Counted from the first letter of the stretch, positions 305 to 48,441 are shown. The stretch: 64,000 nucleotides of DNA from Minisyncoccota bacterium (GCA_041389025.1 JAWKSP010000002.1:184079-248078); one strand, 5' to 3'. The notes: generated from the letters alone by a model not told the origin. Made by a program: numbers and translations.

Positions 305-478
305 GCAATGAATACAAAATATAATGAACTACTTTTTATTTCCGAGCGAACGCAGGTTGTATGATTTAATACCATTAGACGATCCGGCAATGTTTTGTTT
401 TTATGTGGCGAAAGCTTCGCTTTCGCCACAAGTCACACTATACTGCCATAGACGGTAAAAGATTCAAGTTCATTATAA

Positions 479-4179: not shown

Positions 4180-4527
4180 CTACTCATCATCTTCAACATC
4201 TCTTGCTTTAGTTCTTCTGGATCTACTACGAGACCGTCCAGCAGATCTTTTTGTACCGCCAAAATCACTGAAGTTGAAAAAAAGACCGAGTAAACGAGAA
4301 ACAAAACCACCATTCATTATCTGCATGCGTAATTCAGCTATATCATCAGCCAAAACTTCGCTACCAGCTTCAATTTTTTCGACAATTATTCGGATAGATT
4401 TTATTATTTTGATAATATGATAAAGAATTACCGAAATAAAAATCATAAAAACCACCGTACCGATACTGGCAATAAAAAAGAAAATGTTGGCGTGTAATAT
4501 CTCATTCATCTTTGTATATTTTAGCAA
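4180..4527 (-). CDS. hypothetical small membrane protein
   Basis: Single N-terminal TM; Arg/Ser-rich C-terminus. Confidence 0.3.
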   Translation of the reverse strand: MLKYTKMNEILHANIFFFIASIGTVVFMIFISVILYHIIKIIKSIRIIVEKIEAGSEVLADDIAELRMQIMNGGFVSRLLGLFFNFSDFGGTKRSAGRSRSRSRRTKARDVEDDE

Positions 4528-9600: not shown

Positions 9601-10866
9601 TTACCCAATCTTATCCTTCCCCATAAATGGTCGCAGTGCCTCTGGAATCATAATAGATCCATCCTCCTGTTGGAAATTCTCGATCAAAGACACCAAGATA
9701 CGCGGGGTTGGAATAGCGGTACAGTTAAGTGAATGAGCGTATTTCATCTTACCTTCAGCATCACGGTAACGGATATTGAAGCGACGGGTTTGAAAATCAT
9801 GAAAGTATGAAGCGGAGCTGATTTCACGGTAAGTTTGTTCCCCTGGCACCCAAAGCTCTATGTCATACTTTTTCACTTGTCCTTGCCCCAAGTCACCACC
9901 ACAGTTGAGCACTGTACGATACGGTATACCGAGTGACTCGATAAACTCTTCGGTATTGCGATTGATCTCTTCGTGCCATTTTACACTTTCCTCATGCGAG
10001 GCTTCACAAAGCACTACTTGCTCAAGTTTGAAAAACTCATGCACTCGTATCAGACCTTTTGTATCTTTTCCGTGACTACCAGCCTCACGCCGATAACAAG
10101 GTGAGAAAGCTAAAAATTTTACCGGAAATTCTGCTCGCTCCAAGACTTCATCAGCATAAAATCCCATGGCCGATACTTCACTGGTACCAATCAGATAATC
10201 ATCATCTTGGGTTTTATATACATCCTCGGCATCATTAGGTAAATGTCCAGTACCATACAAGTTACTCTGTCGAACAATCGACGGCACCAGAAGCGGTTCA
10301 AAACCTTTGTTTTGGAAAAATTGGTTAGCATAATTCCAAATCGCCCAAGATAACTTTGCTCCGTCACCACGCAAGAAATAACCACGAAAACCGTGCACCT
10401 TCACACCACGCTCAAAGTCCGCCATCTTATGTTTGGTCATAAGCTCAAGATGGTCCTTGGCTTCAAATGGAAATTTGGTTTTCTCACCCCAAGTTTTTAC
10501 TTCCTCATTATCCGCATCACTCTCACCGTCCGGCACTGACATATCAGGAATATTTGGCACCTGCAGCATTAGCCTTTGCCATTTCTTCATCACCGGCTTT
10601 AGATCCTCTTCGTTATTATGTATGTCAGTTTTTAGTGATTGCATCTCAAGAATCAACTGATGACGTCTGGTGCCATCACCACCAACCTGTGCAATCTCTC
10701 CCGACACTCGATTTTGCTCAGCTCGTTTGGCCTCGATAACGGTCATGAGCTCACGCCTTTTATCATCGATACTAATCAGTTTATCAATATCAACTTCTAT
10801 TTTCTTTTTCTTTGCTGCCAACTTAACAATTTCAGCATTTTCACGAATAAATTTAATATCTAACAT
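9601..10866 (-). CDS. serS: seryl-tRNA synthetase
   Basis: N-terminal coiled-coil, class II motifs, FRREAGS..., 421 aa. Confidence 0.9.
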   Translation of the reverse strand: MLDIKFIRENAEIVKLAAKKKKIEVDIDKLISIDDKRRELMTVIEAKRAEQNRVSGEIAQVGGDGTRRHQLILEMQSLKTDIHNNEEDLKPVMKKWQRLMLQVPNIPDMSVPDGESDADNEEVKTWGEKTKFPFEAKDHLELMTKHKMADFERGVKVHGFRGYFLRGDGAKLSWAIWNYANQFFQNKGFEPLLVPSIVRQSNLYGTGHLPNDAEDVYKTQDDDYLIGTSEVSAMGFYADEVLERAEFPVKFLAFSPCYRREAGSHGKDTKGLIRVHEFFKLEQVVLCEASHEESVKWHEEINRNTEEFIESLGIPYRTVLNCGGDLGQGQVKKYDIELWVPGEQTYREISSASYFHDFQTRRFNIRYRDAEGKMKYAHSLNCTAIPTPRILVSLIENFQQEDGSIMIPEALRPFMGKDKIG

Positions 10867-32001: not shown

Positions 32002-32048
32002 GATATAGATTTATAGATAATTTTGACTCAATTTATCCCCAGGGGTAA

Positions 32049-32110
32049 GTGAGGTGGGATAAATAAAAGGTGTTTCCTTAAGGAAACACCTTTTATTTAT
32101 CCCACCTCAC
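32049..32110. terminator. 29-bp perfect palindrome hairpin
   Basis: gtgaggtgggataaataaaaggtgtttcc-ttaa-ggaaacaccttttatttatcccacctcac, immediately 3' of clpB on the minus strand. Confidence 0.55.
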
Positions 32111-32119
32111 TATAAATCC

Positions 32120-34818
32120 TTAAGCGGTTACCGGTTCTTTTGCTTTTACAACACGTTTTGTGACAGGTTTTTTTCTTCCCCCTTTACTCTTTACGTCAAA
32201 ATCAATTTCACCCTTACGCATACAGACTTTTACCACTCCTTTTTGTAACATACCCTCACCCACCATCATATTAGCCACCGGTGTTAGTATCTTACTTTGG
32301 ATCAAGCGTTTTAATGGTCTCGCACCAAACTTTGGATCATAACCTTCTTTAGCCAAGTACTCCAGCACATCATCGGTTAAAGTCATAATTATTTCTTTAT
32401 TTTCTAGACGACGTTGTACTTCATCAATCTGAATAGAAACAATACTGCGAATAGTTTCTGGTGACAAAATATCAAAGACAATTATCTCATCAAGTCGGTT
32501 TAAGAACTCTGGTCGGAAGTAGTTCTTGAGACTATCCATTACTTTATCCTTGGCCTGCACATATTGAGTAGCATCATCTTTTTCAGCCGCAAAACCAAAA
32601 CTAGACATTCTATCTATATGCTCAGCACCAATATTAGAGGTCATAATAATAACTGTATTGCGGAAATTAACCTTTCTACCTTTAGCATCAGTCAAATGAC
32701 CAGAGTCAAGGACCTGCAATAGAATATTAAATACTTCAGGATGAGCTTTTCTATTTCATCCAACAAGATAACTGAGTAAGGACGATGTCGTACTCTCTCG
32801 GTAATTGATCCTCCTTCTTCGTGTCCCACATAACCAGGTGGCGAACCAATAATCTTAGACACAGCATGTTTTTCCATGAACTCTGACATATCAATCCGAA
32901 GTAAAGCATCAGAATCATTAAACATAAATTCTGCTAAAGCCTTAGATAGTTCAGTTTTACCAACTCCAGTTGGACCAAGAAACAGAAATGAACCGATCGG
33001 ACGATTTGGATCAGCAATTCCCGCTCGTGAACGCTTGATAGCGTCAGCCACCAGTTTAATAGCATGATCTTGACCAACTACTTTATTTTTTAGAACATCC
33101 TCCATTCTAGCTAGTTTACGAGCTTCCGCTTCAAGCATGCGAGACACCGGTATACCAGTCCAACGCGAGACTACAGAAGCAATATCTTCTTCAGTCACCT
33201 CTTCTTTTAGTAAACGACGACTGCGTTGCAGTTTTTTAAGACGTTTCATTTTATCATCAAGTGCTTTTTGTACTTTAGGAATTGAATCATAACGAATTTC
33301 CGCTGCCTGAGTTAAATCAGCCATTGCTTCAGCATTTTCTGCTTCTACTCTAAGTTCTTCTAATTCCTTCTTTAATTTACTAATTTCTCCAAGAGTATTT
33401 TTTTCATTACTCCATTTAGTTTCTAAAGCTGAAGTGGTTTCTTTTAGTTCACCGATTTCTCGTTCGATTTCTTTTATTCTGTCTTTTATTTTCTTCTTAT
33501 TTTCAGACACTTCTAACTCCTTTCGCAAAGCTTCACGTTCGATTTCTAAACGTCGCACCTGTCTGTCAGACACTACCAACTCTTCCGGTTTATTTTCTAG
33601 TGAAATACGTAAAGCAGAAGCCGCTTCATCAATCAGATCCACAGCTTTATCTGGTAAAAAACGATCAGTAATGTAACGAGAAGAAAGATTTACTGCTGAT
33701 ACAATCGCATCATCAGTAATTCGTACTCCATGAAAAAGCTCGTATTTTTCAGACAGACCACGAAGAATAGCGATAGTGTCTTCCGGTGACGGCTCATTTA
33801 CAAACACTGGTTGAAAACGTCGAGTCAAGGCCGGATCTCGTTCAATGTGTTTTTGATACTCTTTTAAAGTAGTAGCTCCGATTACTCTTATTTCACCACG
33901 AGCCAAAGCTGGCTTTAGCATATTAGAAGCATCCATCGATCCTTCGGCTTGTCCTGCACCAACTATAGTATGCAATTCATCGATAAATAAAATTATTCCT
34001 CCATCAGAAGCTTCTACTTCTTTCATCACTGCTTTTAAACGCTCCTCGAACTCACCACGAAACTTAGTACCAGCCACTAAAAGACCTAAATCAAGAGATA
34101 GAATCTCTTTTTCTCGAACTGACTCGGGTACATAACCAAGCACTATTTGCTGGGCCAAACCCTCAGCTATTGCAGTCTTTCCCACTCCGGCCTCTCCTAT
34201 CAACACTGGGTTATTCTTAGTACGACGAGACAGTATCTGAATCACCCGTTGTATTTCCACATCACGACCAATTACCGGATCTAGTTTATTTTCTTGTGCC
34301 AATTTAGTAAGATTTCTAGTGTATTTAGTTAGAGCACGATATTTTTTAGGAGCCTGAACGTCAGTAACATTATGTTCACGCAACTCCTTAACTGTACGTA
34401 TGACTTTCTCTCGATCAATTCCCGAACGCTGTAATAACTCAACCGCCGGCCCCGGATACTCAAGAACAGCTACAAACAAATGCTCTACTCCAACATAAGA
34501 ATCACCCATTTGCTCAGCTAACTTACCAGAAAACTCTAGCGCTTTAGCTAGATCAGGCGTCAAATAAAGTTGGTAAGTTGGTGAAATCGTAGTTTGCATC
34601 TCACTCACCTCTAATGCTTCGAGCATAATATCAGTAAAAGCAATCACGTCGACATCCATTCGGTCAAGAATTGAGATCACCATACTTTCATCCTGCATGG
34701 CCAATGCGGTCAAAAGATGAATTGGATTAACATGATTTTGTCCTCGTTCGATAGCTAGTTCATGCGCTTTTCTGATAGCTTCTTTAGCTTTTGATGTAAA
34801 ATTTTGAAAATTAGGCAT
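32120..34818 (-). pseudogene. clpB: ClpB chaperone (AAA+ disaggregase) interrupted by a 1-nt frameshift near 32745
   Basis: N-domain, NBD1, coiled-coil M-domain and NBD2 are all recognisable. Reading LLDEIEK then jumps frame; adding one g to gaaaag-ctcatcc restores [16 protein letters not shown]. Confidence 0.7.
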
Positions 34819-39646: not shown

Positions 39647-41185
39647 TTGTTTATTTTATTAGCTGGTTTTTATATTTATTTTGTTATGAAAAAGAAAAAA
39701 AACAACCAACCGAACATCACTAAACGTCCACCAATAGTGGTGGTTATGGGTCATATCGACCACGGAAAATCGACTCTGCTCGACTACATAAGAAACAGTG
39801 ACGAAGTCGCCAAGGAAGCCGGAGGCATCACTCAACACCTCTCAGCTTACGTAGCAAACCACAAAACCAAAGAAGGTAACGAAGAATCCATCACCTTCCT
39901 TGATACTCCTGGACACGAAGCCTTTCAAAAAATGCGTCTTAGAGGAGCCGATGTCGCCGATATCGCTATCTTGGTAGTTTCCGCTGAGGATGGTGTAAAA
40001 CCACAAACTTTAGAGGCTTTAGAATCTATAAAACAAGCTAACATCCCTTACATAATAGCGATAAATAAAATCGATAAACCTGGCGCTGACATCACTCGTA
40101 CTCAAACCAGCCTAATCGAGAACGAAATATACATTGAAGGTATGGGGGGCGACATACCATGGGCACCAATCTCGGCTAAAACCGGTGAAGGTATTAACGA
40201 TCTTTTGGACTTAGTAGTCTTGGCCGCAGACTTGGCCGAGCTTAAAGGTGACTCCAATGCCGATGTGCGTGGGCAAGTAATTGAAGGTAAGGTAGATCCA
40301 AAACGTGGCAACACTGCTACCTTGATAATTAAAGACGGAACTTTAAAGAGCGGTTCATTTGTAGTGGCAGGAAAAGCTTTTGCTCCGGTAAGGATTATGG
40401 AAGATTTTCAAGGTAAAAGCTTAAAAGAAGCCAGTCTTTCCACTCCAGTTGGTATAGTTGGTTTCAATACTACCCCAACCGTCGGTAGTAGTTTTTATAC
40501 CGTAAGCACTAAAAAAGAAGCTGAGGCCGCTACCGAACAAGCCGATGGTAAAGAAAAAATCAAAATCAAAAACGACGCCAACCTACCGACTATTCCAATT
40601 CTTATCAAAGCCGGTACTCTTGGCTCTATCGACGCCATTGAGCATGAACTATCCAAATTTACTTCAGACCGTATTAATGTTCGTATCATCGACACCGGAG
40701 TTGGTGACATAACCGCCAACGACGTACAAAACGTCAGTGCTACCAAAGATGCTATTATCGTTGGTTTTGGTGTAAAAATTGAACGTCAAGCAACAGACTT
40801 AGCAGAAAGATTAAATGTAGAAATAGATACTTTTGACATAATTTACGAACTATCAGATTGGTTAAACACTGCTCTTAAAAACCGTACTCCTAAAAAAGAA
40901 GAGCAAGTCTTCACTGGTAAAGTAAAAATTCTAAAACACTTTAGTACTCAAAAAAATACCTACGTTTTAGGCGGAAGAATTGATGAAGGATATATTAAAT
41001 TAGGACAAAAAGTAAAGGTCTTAAGACGTGATATAGACTTAGGAAAAGGTACAGTTAAAAACCTTCAACAACAAAAATCAGACGTACAAAAAGTCGATGA
41101 GGGTGAATTTGGTATGCAAATCGAAACTAAAGTTGATATTGCTGCCGGTGACTACCTAGAGCCTTACGATTTAGTAATTACTTAA
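39647..41185 (+). CDS. infB: translation initiation factor IF-2 (compact form)
   Basis: G-domain VVVMGHIDHGKSTLLD, DTPGHEAF, NKID, then beta-barrel domains. Confidence 0.85.
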   Translation: MFILLAGFYIYFVMKKKKNNQPNITKRPPIVVVMGHIDHGKSTLLDYIRNSDEVAKEAGGITQHLSAYVANHKTKEGNEESITFLDTPGHEAFQKMRLRGADVADIAILVVSAEDGVKPQTLEALESIKQANIPYIIAINKIDKPGADITRTQTSLIENEIYIEGMGGDIPWAPISAKTGEGINDLLDLVVLAADLAELKGDSNADVRGQVIEGKVDPKRGNTATLIIKDGTLKSGSFVVAGKAFAPVRIMEDFQGKSLKEASLSTPVGIVGFNTTPTVGSSFYTVSTKKEAEAATEQADGKEKIKIKNDANLPTIPILIKAGTLGSIDAIEHELSKFTSDRINVRIIDTGVGDITANDVQNVSATKDAIIVGFGVKIERQATDLAERLNVEIDTFDIIYELSDWLNTALKNRTPKKEEQVFTGKVKILKHFSTQKNTYVLGGRIDEGYIKLGQKVKVLRRDIDLGKGTVKNLQQQKSDVQKVDEGEFGMQIETKVDIAAGDYLEPYDLVIT

Positions 41186-42391: not shown

Positions 42392-43117
42392 ATGAAAATA
42401 CTTGAAGAAATAGGACTAACAAAAACAGAAGCTAGGATATATGAGCACTTGCTACGTCTGGGTGAGTCTCCTGTAAGTTCCCTGCAAAAATCCTTAGATA
42501 CCCATCCGCAAATTATATACAGGACGATCGATAATCTGACCAAGAAAGATTTAGTAACAGTCGTCAATAAAAAGAACAAAAAATTTGTTATTCCAGAACA
42601 CCCCAAAAAATTGGAAGAGCTAGAAAAAGAAAAACTTAACAAACTTAAAAACAGTCTTCCTGAACTGATAGATATCATGAACAAAACAGAAAGTACGTTA
42701 GTAAAAACTAGCGTAGGTTTTGAAGCTATCCGGTCGTTTCGTAGAATGGCCATCAATGAACTCAAAAGGAGTGAGACTTTATATATTATTGGTGGATCGG
42801 GAGACAGGTTTTATGATGTAATGGGAGATGATTATGAAGAGATTGAAAACAAACGAATCAAAAAGAAAATAAATAAAAAACTTTTAGCTTTCTCTCAAGA
42901 GAAAGAAAAGTTTAATCAAGACACAAACAGACTACATACGGACTTTCGATATTTTTCTTCCAATCACCCCACTCTGTCCAGCATTAATATCTTTAATGAC
43001 CATGTTGGAATCATAATATGGTCAACCGAACCAATTCTAATCCACATAAACAGTCATGAGGTTGCCAATTCCTACAAGCACTACTTTAATGAACTGTGGC
43101 TAAACAGCACAAACTAG
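42392..43117 (+). CDS. TrmB-like HTH transcriptional regulator
   Basis: N-terminal GLTKTEARIYEHLLRLGESPVSSLQKSL winged helix. Confidence 0.45.
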   Translation: MKILEEIGLTKTEARIYEHLLRLGESPVSSLQKSLDTHPQIIYRTIDNLTKKDLVTVVNKKNKKFVIPEHPKKLEELEKEKLNKLKNSLPELIDIMNKTESTLVKTSVGFEAIRSFRRMAINELKRSETLYIIGGSGDRFYDVMGDDYEEIENKRIKKKINKKLLAFSQEKEKFNQDTNRLHTDFRYFSSNHPTLSSINIFNDHVGIIIWSTEPILIHINSHEVANSYKHYFNELWLNSTN

Positions 43118-43200
43118 ACATAACGTTTGCATGAAAAAACCTTTCAGGTCAACACTTTCCTTACCACCACAATAATGCTAAAGTATTGGTTACTTTAATA

Positions 43201-43272
43201 GTCCTGGTGGCGAAGTGGTAACGCTGCGGTCTGCAAAACCGCCATGCGCGGGTTCGATTCCCGCCCAGGACT
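43201..43272 (+). tRNA. tRNA-Cys (anticodon GCA)
   Basis: Acceptor GTCCTGG/CCAGGAC, anticodon loop CTGCAAA, T-arm GCGGGTTCGATTCCCGC. Confidence 0.75.
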
Positions 43273-43322
43273 CACGGAGGAAAATTACACTTTCAGTGTA
43301 ATTTTCCTCCGTGAGTCCTGGG
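43264..43322. repeat. 27-bp perfect inverted repeat whose left arm is the 3' end of tRNA-Cys
   Basis: cccaggactcacggaggaaaattacac-tttca-gtgtaattttcctccgtgagtcctggg. Confidence 0.6.
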
Positions 43323-43329
43323 AGCAAAG

Positions 43330-43480
43330 TATTTTAATACTTTGCGTCGGGAATCGAAAAGCGAACGATCTGAGTCGCTTCTTCCTAAAGCGACGAAGCA
43401 GTGAGCTGTGGTCAAGCGAGTGAAATATTTTCATGTTTTAGAACATGAAAATATCCACGAGAGTGACCGATTCCTTTCCA
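43330..43480. repeat. diverged repeat R1 (related to 43808..43945), ending in a tRNA-3'-end-like segment
   Basis: Shared blocks cgggaatcgaaaagcg / cgggaattgaaaagcg, gagtcgct / gagtcgact, gtgaccgattcc / gtgaccaattcc; internal hairpins. Confidence 0.4.
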
Positions 43481-43675
43481 GCAAAACTCGAAACACTAAG
43501 TAACAACATACTCGACAGTATATTCGTTATCTATTGTAAGATTTAGTGGAGTTATTACATACCAACGTGGTGTAATCAGTAGATCACACTGTCCTAGAGA
43601 CATTCCTATAGGGACTTAAAGAAAGTCCCGTGACTAATTATATTATTTAGAGTAGGATTCAAAAAAAATATTAAT

Positions 43676-43765
43676 GCCGAGGTGGTGGAATCGGTAGACA
43701 CGAAGGACTTAAAATCCTTTGCCTATTTATACGGCGTGCGGGTTCAATTCCCGCCCTCGGCACCA
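43676..43765 (+). tRNA. tRNA-Leu (anticodon TAA)
   Basis: Acceptor GCCGAGG/CCTCGGC, anticodon loop CTTAAAA, long variable arm, encoded CCA. Confidence 0.75.
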
Positions 43766-43807
43766 AATTAAAAAGTAACAACTTCTTGTTGTTGCTTTTT
43801 AATTTAC

Positions 43808-43945
43808 GTAGTCAGAATGACGGGAATTGAAAAGCGTAATTTTAATTCGAATACTTGGAGTATTAAAATAGCTGGGGTCGAGGAGCTTAGTACTTTTTGG
43901 AGTCGACTAAGACGAACAAAAATACTTAGCGAGGTGACCAATTCC
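43808..43945. repeat. diverged repeat R2, ending in ccaattcccgcccttagcac (near-copy of the tRNA-Leu-TAA 3' end)
   Basis: The 3' end matches 43745..43763 (caattcccgccctcggcac) at about 17/19 positions. Confidence 0.45.
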
Positions 43946-44371
43946 CGCCCTTAGCACAAAAAAACAACGAGTCTACTTTGGTTGGACTCGTTGTTTGTAT
44001 TCTAAAGCTAGAATTTAGTGTAATGATATAATCTTTTCCGACAATACTCGCAGTCACTGATGGTAAGTTTGGTAGACCAATCCAAACCATAGTCACCGTC
44101 TGATTTATATAATCCAAGAAAACATAAAGCTCTTCGAGAAAGTAAAATAGACAACATACCCCGTATCTTCAAAAATAAGTTAGTTAATATTCCTTTAATA
44201 TTCATCAGATATGTTCCTCCATAAAGATAAAAACAACATTATACCCAGTAAACAATATAAAACTTTTTACTTTGAAGGACAACCTCATCGCCGTTAAATT
44301 TAAATCATCTAAATAAACAATTTTACGGCTTGTTTTTGACTACAAACTATTGTAAACTCATCGACACACAC

Positions 44372-44444
44372 CCACCCTTAGCTCAGTTGGTAGAGCAGCT
44401 CCCTCTTAAGGAGACGGTCCAAGGTTCGAGCCCTTGAGGGTGGA
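44372..44444 (+). tRNA. tRNA-Lys (anticodon CTT)
   Basis: Acceptor CCACCCT/AGGGTGG, D-arm GCTCAGTTGGTAGAGC, anticodon loop CTCTTAA, T-arm CAAGGTTCGAGCCCTTG. Confidence 0.6.
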
Positions 44445-44556
44445 CGCGAGTAAAACAAACTTCTCACTTTAAAAAGACAAGGAAGTTTGTTTTAATTTCG
44501 CGTCCGAGGCGTAACGATGTATTCTGCTCTACCTAGGCAGAAAACAGTAGAAGTGG

Positions 44557-45267
44557 CTATGAAAAATCACTTATATTATTCTCAATCTTTTCTACCACCT
44601 CAACCAAAGTCTCTAATAGATATAAATCTACAATTTTCTCGTAACCTTCTCGGTTAAAATGAATTCCATCACTTATCTTGTTATTTTTATCCAGAAAAAC
44701 TTCTGAAGTCATAAAAGGTAAAAGTAATATTTTGTGTTTTTTAGACAACTCCTCATACATAGAGTTAAACTTTTCTACATAACCAAGACCGGAAGTAATC
44801 GGTGCTTTCATTTGTAGCAATATCACCACTGGTGCATTTTCACCAGCTTTTAATGACAAAATAGTTTGGTCTAAGTTGTTATAAGTTTGGTCAAGATCAA
44901 TTGACCGAAGCGCGTCATTGCCACCGATACCCAACAATACAATATTCGGCTCTTGAGCTTTAATATCATCAACTCGAGCTAATACCTCACCAGCCACGTC
45001 CCCGTTTACTCCCTCGTTTACAACCAATACATTTAAGCCCAGACCTTTGAGTTTCGTCTCCAATATTGACGGGTAACTATCTTCTTTTGATAACCCATAG
45101 CCAGCGGTCAGACTATCGCCCAGAGCAATTATTTTTATTCCTTCACTTGGATTGGGTACCACGTGTTCAATGTCAGAAATCATAAACCCTGAATCATCCT
45201 TTAAAATAAAAAAGCTAACTATAAATAAAAATAGTGAAGCTAATATTATTAAGTGACTTTTCTTCAT
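44557..45267 (-). CDS. SGNH/GDSL-family hydrolase (lipase/esterase)
   Basis: Signal or TM N-terminus; GDSL block IIALGDSLTAGYG; GGNDAL block. Confidence 0.75.
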   Translation of the reverse strand: MKKSHLIILASLFLFIVSFFILKDDSGFMISDIEHVVPNPSEGIKIIALGDSLTAGYGLSKEDSYPSILETKLKGLGLNVLVVNEGVNGDVAGEVLARVDDIKAQEPNIVLLGIGGNDALRSIDLDQTYNNLDQTILSLKAGENAPVVILLQMKAPITSGLGYVEKFNSMYEELSKKHKILLLPFMTSEVFLDKNNKISDGIHFNREGYEKIVDLYLLETLVEVVEKIENNISDFS

Positions 45268-45347
45268 TATTCATAGTGTATCACTTATTTTATCTTTTAT
45301 TGTGAACTTCCGTAACTACATTATAGTGTTTTAAATTAGCTTTTTAT

Positions 45348-45376
45348 TTAGACAAATATCCTTTTTATGCTATACT
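45348..45376 (+). promoter_or_regulatory. sigma-70-like promoter TTAGAC-17-TATACT upstream of tRNA-Leu-TAG
   Basis: Hexamers and spacing read from the sequence. Confidence 0.4.
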
Positions 45377-45394
45377 CTCCTTCACATCCCAAAT

Positions 45395-45476
45395 GCGCGG
45401 GTGGCGAAATTGGTAGACGCGTTAGTCTTAGGAACTAATAGAGCAATCTGTGGAGGTTCAAGTCCTCTCCCGCGCA
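45395..45476 (+). tRNA. tRNA-Leu (anticodon TAG)
   Basis: Acceptor GCGCGGG/CCCGCGC, anticodon loop CTTAGGA, long variable arm. Confidence 0.75.
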
Positions 45477-45703
45477 CTAGTATAAAAATCAGCTTGACGA
45501 TTAGTCGGGCGATTTTTGTTAGTGCGCGGGAAGAAAGCAAACTACTTTGCTTTCGTGAGGGCTTGAAGACCGGAACGATGCCGCAGGCAAGTGAGGTGGG
45601 GTCGAGAAAATTTTGCTTTGCAAAATTATTCGTGACCAAGTCCTCTCCCGCGCACTAATATAAGAAATCAGTTCGACGAATAATCGGGTTTTTAATTTTA
45701 CTT
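45461..45703. repeat. direct repeat of the tRNA-Leu-TAG 3' end plus about 40 nt of downstream sequence (copy 1 at 45461..45517, copy 2 at 45639..45703)
   Basis: agtcctctcccgcgcacta(g/a)tataa(a/g)aatcag(c/t)t(t/c)gacga(t/a)ta(g/a)tcggg...ttttt, about 85% identity; a second acceptor-like gcgcggg lies at about 45524. Confidence 0.55.
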
Positions 45704-46174
45704 AAACCACCTCTCCCGCAACCAAGAAAGAACTCTTTTCATCTCATCTTCATTTAATTTCTCTCTCTTATCAGAATCAATATTGTTTTCTAGTGATTTA
45801 TTTAAAGCAGGATACCAACCTCCGGGACTTTCAAAATCCCCTTCAACACGCGGAATTATATGTAGATGCAAGTGCAAAACCGTCTGTCCCGCCGACTTAC
45901 CGTCTTGAATCGTCCAATCAAAACCGGTAGCTTTAAATTCTTTTACAATAAAATTGGTAACTTTTCTGGAAAAAGAAAAGAAATACTGGACTTGCGTTTC
46001 CGACAAATCATTTAGCGAGGTATGTTTCTGCTTCGGTAGGACAAGCACATGCCCGGGCACAATAGGAGCAATATTGTAGATAGCCAGACAATCATCTGAT
46101 TCTACAAACACACTATGTGTTACATCAAAATTCCCAAATCTATAATTTTTATCATTCATGTTACTTGCCACCAA
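45698..46174 (-). CDS. HIT-family (histidine triad) nucleotide hydrolase
   Basis: HLHLHIIPR histidine-triad motif. Confidence 0.8.
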   Translation of the reverse strand: MVASNMNDKNYRFGNFDVTHSVFVESDDCLAIYNIAPIVPGHVLVLPKQKHTSLNDLSETQVQYFFSFSRKVTNFIVKEFKATGFDWTIQDGKSAGQTVLHLHLHIIPRVEGDFESPGGWYPALNKSLENNIDSDKREKLNEDEMKRVLSWLRERWFK

Positions 46175-47327: not shown

Positions 47328-47406
47328 TAGTTACCATTATACAATATAGGACAGTGTGACCAAGTGAAAAGGCCGGAAAGCTTTGCTTTCCGGCCTTTTC
47401 ACTTGG

Positions 47407-48441
47407 TCACACTGCTCGCAACCTCGCCTTTTTAAACTGTCTACCTCTAAAATAGCGATTGTAGTAGCGAGCAAAGGTTTTCTTAAAACCTGCCGGAAGC
47501 TTGTCGGTAAGCCCACACCACCGCGAACAATAACCCTCTCGCTTTCTCACACAATCGTCACACCCAAGGTACAGCACATGACAAATTTGATTCTTGCAGT
47601 GATAATGAGTGTCGCTCTTGCTCCTCCCACAAAGATGACAATGAGAAATTATCTCGTCACCGATTTTCTCACCTAGTCTCTCATCAAAGACAAAGTTTTT
47701 ACCGTAAAATTTGTTTTCCAAACCTTCATTTTCTACCTGATGCTTGTAGTCAATAATTCCCCCTTTTAAATGCTTCACATTCTTAAAACCATTATGTTTC
47801 AGCCAAGCACTCGCCTTTTCACAACGAATCCCGCCGGTACAATAAAGAGCAATCTTCTTATCTTTATGCTTCTCAAGCAAAGCAGGTGTGACTGCTAGCT
47901 CTTCACGAAAAGTGTCTACGTCAGGTGTAACAGCGCGAGCAAAATGGCCCACTTCACTTTCATAAGCATTTCTCATATCGACGATCACAGCGTTCGGATC
48001 GTCTATGTATTGGTTCATCTCCTTGGCAGTTAGATATTCACCGGTATTAGTAACATCAAAGGTAGAGTCATCCAAACCGTCAGCTACAATCTTTGACCTA
48101 ACTTTAATGGTTAGTTTGTAAAAAGACGATTCTTTCCCCTCTTCAACCGCTATTTTGTACGGCACATCAGTGAGCTCGGGCTGAGCTTGCACCCAACTAT
48201 CAAACTCCTGCCAGTTTTCGGTCGGTACGTTCATTTGTGCATTTATACCTTCATGAGCGACATAGATACGCCCTAAACAGCCTAGTTCTAGGCACTTTTC
48301 CAGCAACCTTTCACGAAACTCTTCCGGTTCAGCAACTTTTACATAACGATAAAAGGACACGGTGGTACGCGGTCGTTTATCAGCCAAAACCGCCTCTTTT
48401 TTCTCAAGGCGCGAGCGCAAATCTTTAGCAATTTTTCCCAT
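47407..48441 (-). CDS. trhO: rhodanese-domain tRNA uridine(34) hydroxylase-like protein (TrhO/YceA family) with a Cys-rich C-terminal extension
   Basis: Rhodanese active-site loop YCTGGIRCEK; C-terminal CHLCGRS...HCKNQICH...CDDC...CSRWCG zinc-ribbon-like segment. Confidence 0.6.
   Translation of the reverse strand: MGKIAKDLRSRLEKKEAVLADKRPRTTVSFYRYVKVAEPEEFRERLLEKCLELGCLGRIYVAHEGINAQMNVPTENWQEFDSWVQAQPELTDVPYKIAVEEGKESSFYKLTIKVRSKIVADGLDDSTFDVTNTGEYLTAKEMNQYIDDPNAVIVDMRNAYESEVGHFARAVTPDVDTFREELAVTPALLEKHKDKKIALYCTGGIRCEKASAWLKHNGFKNVKHLKGGIIDYKHQVENEGLENKFYGKNFVFDERLGEKIGDEIISHCHLCGRSKSDTHYHCKNQICHVLYLGCDDCVRKREGYCSRWCGLTDKLPAGFKKTFARYYNRYFRGRQFKKARLRAV

Follow-up and report, generated by a model that had tools for sequence, protein, structure and literature searches.

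The long hairpin at the 3′ end of a tRNA-Cys gene is the left joint of an RtT-like tRNA-trailer element in a Paceibacterota genome

The tRNA-Cys hairpin and the unit behind it

Why should the 3′ end of a tRNA-Cys gene form the base of a perfect hairpin that runs on far into the trailer? The question arises in a window of 64 kb (the whole stretch of DNA analysed) from a sparsely sampled CPR/Patescibacteria bacterium (Paceibacterota). A protein encoded next to the hairpin shares 100% identity with one from a Candidatus Paceibacterota MAG, and the relatives that come after it reach at most 73%. The window is gene-dense, with a G+C content of ~37%, and carries eight dispersed tRNA genes as identified by ARAGORN and Rfam. 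The initial annotation had reported that the last 9 nt of tRNA-Cys and the next 18 nt are mirrored perfectly around a 5-nt loop, and the sequence agrees: cccaggact (43264–43272), the last 9 nt of the tRNA, is mirrored by agtcctggg at 43314–43322, and the 18 nt of trailer at 43273–43290 are mirrored by 43296–43313. The repeat finder returned even longer arms of 28 nt (100% complementary, 3 nt apart), because an additional T–A pair closes the 5-nt loop, so that the stem is 28 bp long with a 3-nt gap. In 20 block-shuffled windows the longest perfect stem was 9–13 bp, and the tRNA-Cys hairpin is far beyond chance. Furthermore, the fold of tRNA-Cys together with the hairpin gave z = −9.26, and none of 200 shuffles folded as well. 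Hairpin length alone is not tRNA-specific here, since the window holds 19 perfect hairpins of at least 12 bp, two of which, of 30 bp, lie 3′ of protein genes.

The hairpin is the centre of a longer, interrupted inverted repeat, which the initial annotation had missed. This repeat spans from the T-loop of the tRNA to 43358, and its only interruption is a 9-bp side hairpin (hp1) that sits exactly between the acceptor part and the T-stem part. The whole composite extends over ~290 nt and consists, in order, of the tRNA, the trailer palindrome, the inverted acceptor copy, the side hairpin, the inverted T-stem/T-loop, a core and a direct repeat:

43201–43272, + strand: tRNA-Cys(GCA), no encoded CCA (Rfam RF00005, 65.7 bits; ARAGORN 43201–43273)
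43264–43291, + strand: left hairpin arm, made up of the 9 final nt of tRNA-Cys (3′ strand of the acceptor stem with the discriminator) and 19 nt of trailer (repeat finder)
43295–43322, + strand: right arm of the hairpin, the mirrored trailer and then AGTCCTGGG (43314–43322), an inverted copy of the acceptor 3′ strand (repeat finder)
43323–43345, + strand: hp1, the 9-bp side hairpin AGCAAAGTAT-TTTA-ATACTTTGC, which folds and has equivalents with conserved loops in other genomes
43346–43358, + strand: inverted T-loop and T-stem 3′ strand, GTCGGGAATCGAA; reverse complement TTCGATTCCCGAC, against TTCGATTCCCGCC in the tRNA
43359–43467, + strand: class A core, ~110 nt (match to model R1 at 43345–43479, 49.4 bits, E 7e-13)
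43468–43487, + strand: decayed direct repeat of the tRNA-Cys 3′ end, from C56 of the T-loop, CGATTCCTTTCCAGCAAAAC against CGATTCCCGCCCAGGACTCA

Within the core of this unit the order is J1 (GAAAAG), hpA (a closing pair followed by tandem GA/GA), J2 and hpB. The base of hpB is GGTCA/TGACC in the Cys unit and GGUCG/UGACC, with a conserved G·U, in most copies. The direct repeat has decayed to 13 of 20 identical positions and the inverted arm still matches the tRNA perfectly, hence the weak closing helix in the Cys copy.

In predicted minimum-energy folds that included the tRNA, the inverted arm paired with the tRNA's own 3′ half. The earlier proposal that the hairpin sequesters the tRNA 3′ end is consistent with these thermodynamic folds, in which the 3′ strand is taken from the acceptor stem. 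A terminator scan did not call an intrinsic terminator at the Cys hairpin, where the stem is followed by GGGAGCAAAG without a T-run; the same scan does call the inner hairpin of the tRNA-Leu(TAG) unit described below. The suggestion of a termination or processing signal, raised together with the remark that the hairpin is longer than a simple terminator needs, has to be modified: the hairpin is indeed not a canonical terminator, but it belongs to a discrete RtT-like element and is not the tRNA's own processing hairpin. An att-like site had also been considered, which is true in part, since a direct repeat of the tRNA (T-loop to 3′ end) does lie ~200 nt downstream. The tRNA-Cys hairpin is the left joint of an RtT-like tRNA-trailer element, similar in layout to the repeats found behind tRNA-Tyr in Escherichia coli.

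Recurrence in the window and in other genomes

RtT-like elements follow tRNA-Cys, tRNA-Leu(TAA), tRNA-Leu(TAG) and tRNA-Gln in the window, and a remnant follows tRNA-Lys. The units other than Cys are composed as follows:

40–304, − strand: fourth unit, tRNA-Gln(CTG) at 233–304 (ARAGORN; R1 47–164, 26.5 bits, E 6.5e-6), with inverted acceptor copy 187–201, hp1 164–185, inverted T copy 150–163, class A-like core and direct repeat 40–58
43676–43996, + strand: second unit, tRNA-Leu(TAA) at 43676–43765 (ARAGORN, repeat finder, R1 61.7 bits), with terminator hairpin 43765–43805, inverted T copy 43819–43831, class A core and direct repeat 43939–43957
43962–43996, + strand: second, different terminator of the Leu(TAA) unit
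44372–44520, + strand: tRNA-Lys(CTT) with a remnant, hairpin arms 44451–44463 and 44482–44494 (repeat finder)
45395–45690, + strand: third unit, tRNA-Leu(TAG) at 45395–45477 (repeat finder, R1 75 bits), with composite hairpin 45468–45531 (arms 45468–45486 and 45513–45531, including the last 9–10 nt of the tRNA), hp1 45533–45554, inverted T copy 45555–45567, class A core and direct repeat 45637–45655

That hairpins incorporating the acceptor end recur at other tRNAs of this genome, as had been noted at the outset, was borne out by the Gln and Leu(TAG) stems, both of which include the tRNA end. The outer stem of the Gln unit is 14 bp long and uses the last 8 nt of the tRNA, CCGGCAGCACGAGA pairing with TCTCGTGCTGCCGG around an inner terminator. 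At tRNA-Lys the outer stem GGACGCGA/TCGCGTCC (about 44442–44449 and 44498–44505) takes in only 4 nt of the tRNA and is followed by GGCGTAACGAT; model R1 did not detect this remnant. The hairpins behind tRNA-Trp, tRNA-Tyr, tRNA-Leu(CAA) and tRNA-Leu(TAA) do not reach into the tRNA.

The class A core was found in the 64-kb window after four different tRNAs only, including the Gln copy, which lay outside the R1 seed, and alignment showed the four cores to be diverged from one another. The regions downstream of Cys, Leu(TAA), Leu(TAG) and Gln have in common the motifs AGCGAACGAT, AGCTGKGGTCRAG and GTGACC. Direct repeats are well preserved in the Leu(TAG), Leu(TAA) and Gln units, and that of Leu(TAG) matches at 93% over 30 nt, running on into a diverged copy of the terminator; units often end with a second terminator after the direct repeat. 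When folded on their own, the elements behave alike: the inverted arm and the direct repeat form acceptor-like and extended T-stem helices around two hairpins, and hp1 branches off to the side. No tRNA-like cloverleaf was found in the elements with RF00005 (E ≤ 10) or ARAGORN, which returned only the eight true tRNAs. Relatives reached through the upstream TrmB-like gene showed at most 73% identity and did not conserve the gene order, so that they provided no orthologous empty site for tRNA-Cys.

To place these units in a wider context, we drew on two collection scans. Scan 1, with one genome per species, looked for a T-loop followed by its inverted copy 70–100 nt later and gave at least 120 loci; scan 2 searched metagenomes with the class A core alone and did not require a tRNA. 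Among the matches listed, the RtT-like design was present in more than 100 other genomes, mostly CPR, next to ~20 tRNA identities, tmRNA and 5S rRNA. CPR hosts among these matches include Paceibacteria, Saccharibacteria, Gracilibacteria and many ‘candidate phyla’, and hosts outside the CPR include Elusimicrobia, Treponema/Spirochaetaceae, Clostridia, Actinomycetota, Aminicenantales and cultured Oxalobacteraceae. Cultivable carriers include Pseudoduganella buxea KCTC 52429, in which tRNA-Ser has two minimal units in tandem behind it (L105), Herbaspirillum aquaticum IEH 4430 (L053) and Gemmiger formicilis An812 (L045). On a contig of one relative (L005) the same design follows both tRNA-Arg(TCT) and tRNA-Arg(GCG). 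About a quarter to half of the sampled CPR tRNA genes carry the element. Searches of the literature did not turn up any account of the CPR elements.

The arms copy the local tRNA and not merely the universal T-loop, because matches in the T-stem and acceptor exceed those of permuted controls. Among the 121 listed matches, all three variable T-stem positions were complementary in 54 (4.2 in permuted controls), and an exact inverted copy of 7 nt of the acceptor, the feature that extends the hairpin into the tRNA, was present in 28 (1.2 in permuted controls). The two variable T-loop positions were mutually consistent in 116 of these matches, where chance would give 50%. In 69 of the 121 the tRNA 3′ end was repeated directly 50–240 nt later (at least 15 of 20 positions). 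The direct repeat began at C56/G57 and ended at the discriminator plus 0–4 nt (17–21 nt) in 45 of 52 cases, and a few direct repeats extend through the terminator or represent tandem units. The tRNAs in these loci that had not been selected by the pattern showed a direct repeat of at least 16/19 in 14 of 83 instances and an inverted T copy of at least 12/14 in 17 of 83. Model R1 detected 62 elements in 100 other loci; a tRNA precedes 55 of these elements by no more than 450 nt, and several others follow tmRNA-like 3′ ends. In scan 2, 98 plausible elements were obtained among the matches listed. Of these, 69 are located downstream of a tRNA or tmRNA, 59 at a distance of no more than 140 nt (19 amino-acid identities) and 10 as second units; for 20, no tRNA was called. 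In many copies the arms are truncated and the cores intact. Most units have a terminator-like hairpin with a T-run between the tRNA and the element.

Each core class adjoins many tRNA identities, and arrays of different classes occur after a single tRNA, as in the order B then A behind one tRNA-Cys (L018) and A then B behind one tRNA-Gln (L030); a tRNA-Leu(TAA) in L018 is followed by a nested pair of units. Copies were also found away from tRNAs. Two of them lie in the 23S–5S spacer (L163, L156), inside a duplicated 5′ fragment of 5S rRNA that they divide and that directly precedes the intact gene. Another copy, with an 11–19-nt direct repeat, follows the stop codon of an L7/L12-like gene (L144), as judged by eye from the translated end. 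In a Yonathbacteria locus (L098), the element lies between perfect 56-nt direct repeats that contain a terminator hairpin, which looks like the outcome of a recent duplicative event. Apart from this case there is no sign of recent bursts, since near-identical copies are absent from within any one genome. Judging by the genes that they adjoin, the elements have their natural habitat in the transcribed spacers and trailers of stable-RNA operons, and they have evidently moved, copying the end of the neighbouring gene each time.

Core structure and competing explanations

The interiors of the elements fall into several dissimilar core classes, at least four or five. The class A structure was drawn by hand on an alignment of 24 sequences, and the Infernal covariance model R1 was built. 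The consensus reads GAAAG; N-CGGAGC...GCGAG-N′; J2; GGUCGNG...CNUGACC; and then the repeat. In the 24 sequences 83% of cells pair, compared with 73% in shuffles, and the covariation score is 0.291 as against 0.134 in shuffles (reached by 0 of 500) and 0.05–0.08 with slid partners. The closing pair N–N′ of hpA occurs as CG (10), GC (8) and AU (5), one G·U is conserved in 22 of the 24 class A sequences, and the P2 pairs covary with the T-loop variant (AU 11, UA 9). As modelled in this way, the class A core is a conserved structure, a predicted three-way junction. For class A, folding of the sense strand is more favourable than that of the antisense strand by 6.5 kcal/mol (p = 7e-7) and involves twice as many G·U pairs, a bias that points to an RNA made in the direction of the tRNA. 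Class B has a terminal hairpin (hpB) with a GUAA-type loop and strong covariation, and showed no strand asymmetry in sense versus antisense folding. In class C, orthologues after tRNA-Tyr in two Oscillospiraceae exhibit compensatory changes. Covariation alone would also fit a folded single-stranded DNA site.

It could be argued that the Cys hairpin is a long palindromic (bidirectional) terminator in the style of this genome that extends by chance into the tRNA and has nothing attached to it. The 19 perfect hairpins of at least 12 bp in the window, with the two of 30 bp after protein genes, are consistent with such a style, as are the plain terminators that follow tRNA-Trp, tRNA-Tyr and tRNA-Leu(CAA), which are 14–20-bp palindromes with A- and T-runs; in most related loci, moreover, what adjoins the tRNA is a hairpin with a true GC stem and a T-run. 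However, a T-run is missing at the Cys hairpin, the terminator scan does not report it, and its inverted repeat continues past hp1 to the T copy, behind which lie a conserved core and then the direct repeat. Inverted copies of the local tRNA's own acceptor (28 of the 121 listed loci, 1.2 expected) likewise argue against a chance extension, and we regard this explanation as improbable. Even less probable, in our opinion, is a cis-acting switch of tRNA maturation, in which the inverted arm would compete for the 3′ strand, the direct repeat would act as anti-sequestrator and the core would sense a protein or ligand. The A / A′ / A arrangement is that of an attenuator, in minimum-energy folds of entire units the arm finds its partner in the tRNA 3′ half, and the core is conserved and structured; yet at least four or five dissimilar core classes are not what a ligand aptamer would present, many copies combine truncated arms with intact cores, a terminator usually lies between tRNA and arm, only about a quarter to half of the tRNAs have the element and some copies are located away from tRNAs altogether.

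The strongest competitor is a miniature DNA element of the integrative type, or the attL/attR scar of one. On this account a tyrosine integrase acting in trans would cross over in the T-loop, the element would bring in a new 3′ end for the tRNA, the direct repeat would be the displaced tRNA end and the core would be the set of attP arms, possibly used as folded single-stranded DNA in the manner of integron attC or CTX-phage attP. The direct repeat does run from the T-loop to the tRNA 3′ end (plus 0–4 nt), which Williams is said to have described in 2002 as the classic identity block of T-loop-targeting integrases. In many loci the second terminator differs from the first, as would be expected of the original B′ flank, tandem arrays occur, tmRNA is also a target, and in one locus (L087) two copies flank a small island that carries SLATT and TIR genes. 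Against this, no recombinase or other protein family recurs near the 120 listed loci (the best was found at 8 of 120, in scattered positions), neither a cargo version nor a distant direct repeat was seen within the 8-kb loci, and scans of the viral collection with class A and B cores gave chance matches in GC-rich coding DNA or none. Conservative site-specific recombination does not explain how one core class comes to adjoin ~20 tRNAs with rewritten arms, and the copies at non-tRNA sites are unlike att sites. In addition, the sense-strand G·U bias of class A, its conserved G·U and its tandem GA are typical of RNA. The extent of the repeat and the arrays keep the integrative explanation alive, and the RNA-like features together with the lack of a recombinase or phage copy weaken it; overall, we consider it unlikely.

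Several other candidates were tried and rejected. Ribozymes (hammerhead, twister and others) found no Rfam support, and on inspection the junctions do not fit a hammerhead core. A retroviral-type primer-binding site or a cDNA of mature tRNA was ruled out because the repeats carry the trailer bases of the gene (e.g. CAA), and not CCA, where CCA is unencoded. A permuted or two-piece tmRNA was represented by a 15-bit sub-threshold match only, and ARAGORN reported no tmRNA. At permissive thresholds, Rfam gave only spurious microRNA-type hairpin matches on the palindromes.

We favour, as a probable explanation, that the Cys hairpin is the junction of tRNA-Cys with an RtT-type non-coding trailer element that can be released as an RNA and spreads duplicatively. 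According to this model, the element would be transcribed with, or just after, the adjacent tRNA, and its 5′ arm would have two alternative partners, the tRNA 3′ end (giving the long hairpin) or the 3′ arm of the element itself. The hairpin into the tRNA would represent the pairing of the inverted arm before processing. Once the tRNA had folded and its 3′ end had been cut, the inverted arm would pair with the direct repeat of the element to form an acceptor/T-stem-like helix closing the core. The nucleases of tRNA maturation might then trim the element to a discrete stable RNA, as reported for E. coli rtT, and by this analogy we infer a similar release for the CPR copies. Co-transcription with the tRNA would be limited by the terminator-like hairpin that lies between them in most units, and because a T-loop is missing from the closing helix at the 12-bp mark, this helix would not necessarily be recognised by RNase P, RNase Z or the CCA-adding enzyme. 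By duplication the family would pass, or would have passed, from one stable-RNA locus to another and take a copy of the end of the adjoining gene; template switching or an RNA-mediated route may be responsible for writing the arms. A more far-reaching version, which we put forward only tentatively and consider doubtful, is that the cores are tiny (about 60–130 nt) unrecognised non-coding mobile elements of stable-RNA spacers that spread by target-templated copying. Their copied termini would allow the tRNA-processing enzymes of the host to excise them cleanly, RtT and sX4 would be lineage-specific survivors, and the three-way-junction core would be active, either as a ribozyme or as a handle for a trans-acting enzyme.

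Significance and comparison with known elements

RtT, on record since 1978, has stood as an oddity of a single E. coli tRNA operon that lacked an explanation. The elements described here are a widespread and diversified new variant of these known but unexplained trailer elements, and they indicate that the same design is widespread and is abundant in CPR/Patescibacteria, with conserved interiors and with arms rewritten for each host gene. The question of RtT function thereby gains a comparative handle in the form of many sequences, several core classes and cultured carriers. A mechanistic problem is raised as well, namely how a non-coding module of ~100 nt comes to carry the end of its neighbour in two copies, one inverted and one direct. 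For annotation, the elements explain many ‘partial tRNA’ repeats, long hairpins over tRNA 3′ ends and orphan sRNAs adjoining tRNAs. They may also mark hot spots at which small islands accumulate.

With the tRNA att sites of the T-loop class and CIMEs, the elements share a direct repeat that begins in the T-loop and covers the remainder of the tRNA, an intact tRNA, the use of tmRNA as a target and the occurrence of arrays. They differ in being only 150–250 nt long, in having no genes and no linked integrase, in carrying an inverted copy of the target, and in their conserved, covarying interior, with one core family at many tRNAs. REP/BIME and MITE-like repeats are similarly small, non-coding, structured and multi-copy, and are found at gene 3′ ends near terminators. 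In contrast to these, the present elements are not near-identical, their ‘terminal repeats’ are copied from the neighbouring gene and the target duplications are long, at about 20 to 56 nt or more. What would be expected of MITEs, namely terminal inverted repeats that are fixed, a short duplication of fixed length and many near-identical copies in one genome, was not found.

The closest likeness is to RtT. The E. coli tyrT operon contains 178-bp repeats, which Egan and Landy reportedly described in 1978, and in 1991 Bosl and Kersten are said to have shown that rtT RNA is processed from the tyrT transcript and to have suggested an effect on the stringent response; to our knowledge, the function of rtT RNA is still not established. 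At tyrT/tyrV of E. coli MG1655 we found four RF00391 units (133–138 bits), one between tyrT and tyrV and three after tyrV. In each of them the 5′ arm GGGGAAGGAU is complementary to AUCCUUCCCC of tRNA-Tyr and the 3′ arm is the last 19 nt of tRNA-Tyr. The annotated rttR (171 nt) extends from 7 nt after tyrV to the CCA of the tRNA-Tyr repeat. Among E. coli genomes the copy number varies between 1 and 14 places, and RtT is absent from some strains; an RtT-free strain has a single tRNA-Tyr with different DNA after it and offers no clean empty site. RF00391 (gathering score 45 bits) found no match in 43100–45800 at E ≤ 10, in the whole window at the gathering score or in eight other loci at E ≤ 1, and R1 in turn found no match in E. 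coli RtT. Since neither model matches the other family, the likeness to RtT is one of architecture only: the window elements share the RtT architecture and are not members of RF00391.

Both kinds of element are located on the strand of the tRNA (as in all four window units), either in the trailer of its operon or in a spacer, and both end in a direct copy of the last ~19–21 nt of the tRNA, starting within the T-loop. In both, the 5′ arm is complementary to the T-stem/acceptor 3′ strand and the arms close a structured domain of ~100 nt (for RtT, according to the Rfam consensus). Tandem units are possible and the copy number is variable in each case. The E. coli RtT differs in being confined to tRNA-Tyr, whereas the new family adjoins ~20 tRNA identities, tmRNA and 5S rRNA and has several core classes. 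Furthermore, the inverted arm of the new family usually includes the whole T-loop, often together with hp1, and in about a quarter of the listed cases it takes in the acceptor strand and trailer as well, which produces a long hairpin into the tRNA such as that at tRNA-Cys.

A further parallel is provided by sX4 of Xanthomonas (RF02223), whose Rfam consensus comprises tRNA-Ser, a terminator, a hairpin and a G-run paired to the C-run of the T-stem/acceptor. The sX4 model gave no match in the window, and on a tRNA-Ser unit of Pseudoduganella it scored 41.7 bits, below the gathering score of 70. Unlike the elements described here, sX4 has been presented as an orphan sRNA and not as a tRNA-trailer repeat, and it covers the left half of the design only. 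Its northern signal was at 280–300 nt, compared with the 156 nt expected (PMC3300014). Taken together, sX4 appears to be another glimpse of the RtT-type trailer elements.

Recurrent modules within the elements

In the RtT-like elements that lie 3' of tRNA genes, comparison of loci from other genomes and metagenomes (L-numbers, found in scans for the element or its core) revealed two small recurrent modules. Some loci have the mini-module GA(A/T)A(A/G)NN-G(Y)G-TACT-C(R)C inserted between the core and the direct repeat, immediately 5' of the repeat (L080, L087, L104, L098, L038, L065 and L126). The hairpin made by this module has a UACU loop and a 3-bp stem, which covaries as GCG/CGC or GTG/CAC, and GUACUG is found at the equivalent junction in class B cores. 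The side hairpin hp1, which interrupts the inverted repeat of the element between its acceptor and T-stem parts, is near-constant in sequence (GCAAGCCAACTGCTTGGCTTGC) at many loci across distant genomes (for example L038, L127, L005, L022, L062, L093 and L020), with loops of CUGC, CCUGCG or CUGGGAG. Near-identical copies of hp1 adjoin different tRNAs and are combined with different core classes. The hairpin behaves as an independent, conserved module.

Elements and cores beyond canonical tRNA genes

We observed that tmRNA also has an element 3' of it; one locus has an Rfam call for the tmRNA, and at three others the element follows a tRNA-like 3' end.

Elements following tmRNA or a tRNA-like 3' end
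L077:7848-8000 (Duganella), element after tmRNA, the tmRNA 3' end being called by Rfam
L050:5828-5941, element after a ...TCCACA-type tRNA-like 3' end for which ARAGORN gave no tRNA call
L061:741-855, element after a ...TCCACA-type tRNA-like 3' end for which ARAGORN gave no tRNA call
L080:3897-3984, element after a ...TCCACA-type tRNA-like 3' end for which ARAGORN gave no tRNA call

Class A cores, the type present in the window, were also located away from tRNAs. L098:2592-2832 (Candidatus Yonathbacteria) has such a core with no tRNA nearby, where a tandem duplication holds it within its second copy. The 56-nt direct repeats here (2608-2663 and 2777-2832) match each other at 100% identity and include a terminator hairpin; the joint carries an additional 17-nt repeat and a TATG-TACT-CATA mini-hairpin. 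On two metagenome contigs, class A cores lie in the 23S-5S rRNA spacer (L163, about 9970-10140; L156, about 1060-1200). In both, a duplicated 5' fragment of 5S rRNA is interrupted by the core between nt 19 and 20, and the intact 5S gene follows about 55 nt downstream of this fragment.

L087 (Saccharibacteria) contains the same element twice, at 1392-1483 and 4431-4496, spaced about 3 kb apart. The copies have 180 identical nt in common, made up of one half of the core, the tRNA-Tyr repeat and some 120 nt of flanking sequence. Between them, at a tRNA locus, is a small island of the defence type, whose genes have DUF4231/SLATT and ThsB-like TIR domains.

Further features of the window

An exact duplicate of the tRNA-Gln 5' end (TGCCGGATCGTCTAATGGTA, from acceptor strand through D-loop) forms a 5'-side counterpart of the 3'-end duplications in the elements; the copy begins 85 nt ahead of the start of the gene. 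Two long palindromes follow protein genes.

Features of the window
370-389, minus strand, 20-nt copy of the tRNA-Gln 5' end, 66 nt upstream of tRNA-Gln (233-304)
47352-47414, perfect 30-bp palindrome after a protein gene
32048-32111, perfect 30-bp palindrome after a protein gene

Long, perfectly palindromic terminators seem to be habitual throughout this genome. Since the right arm of the palindrome at 47352-47414 overlaps the stop-codon end of the ORF at 47407-48441 (minus strand), these hairpins, too, may 'grow into' gene ends.

ClpB is seemingly in two pieces, encoded by overlapping ORFs of 199 and 708 aa (32120-34818, minus strand), and the IF-2 ORF (39647-41185, plus strand) starts with TTG and has just 512 aa. 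Frameshifts, pseudogenes or short CPR forms are possible explanations for both.

Relation to the sX4 RNA

Sub-threshold matches to the Rfam family sX4 (RF02223), a Xanthomonas sRNA whose consensus includes tRNA-Ser and a terminator, were obtained in L105:37-223 (Pseudoduganella buxea) and L067, where they run across the tRNA into the beginning of the element. It may be that sX4 is a mis-delimited member of the same tRNA-trailer element phenomenon.
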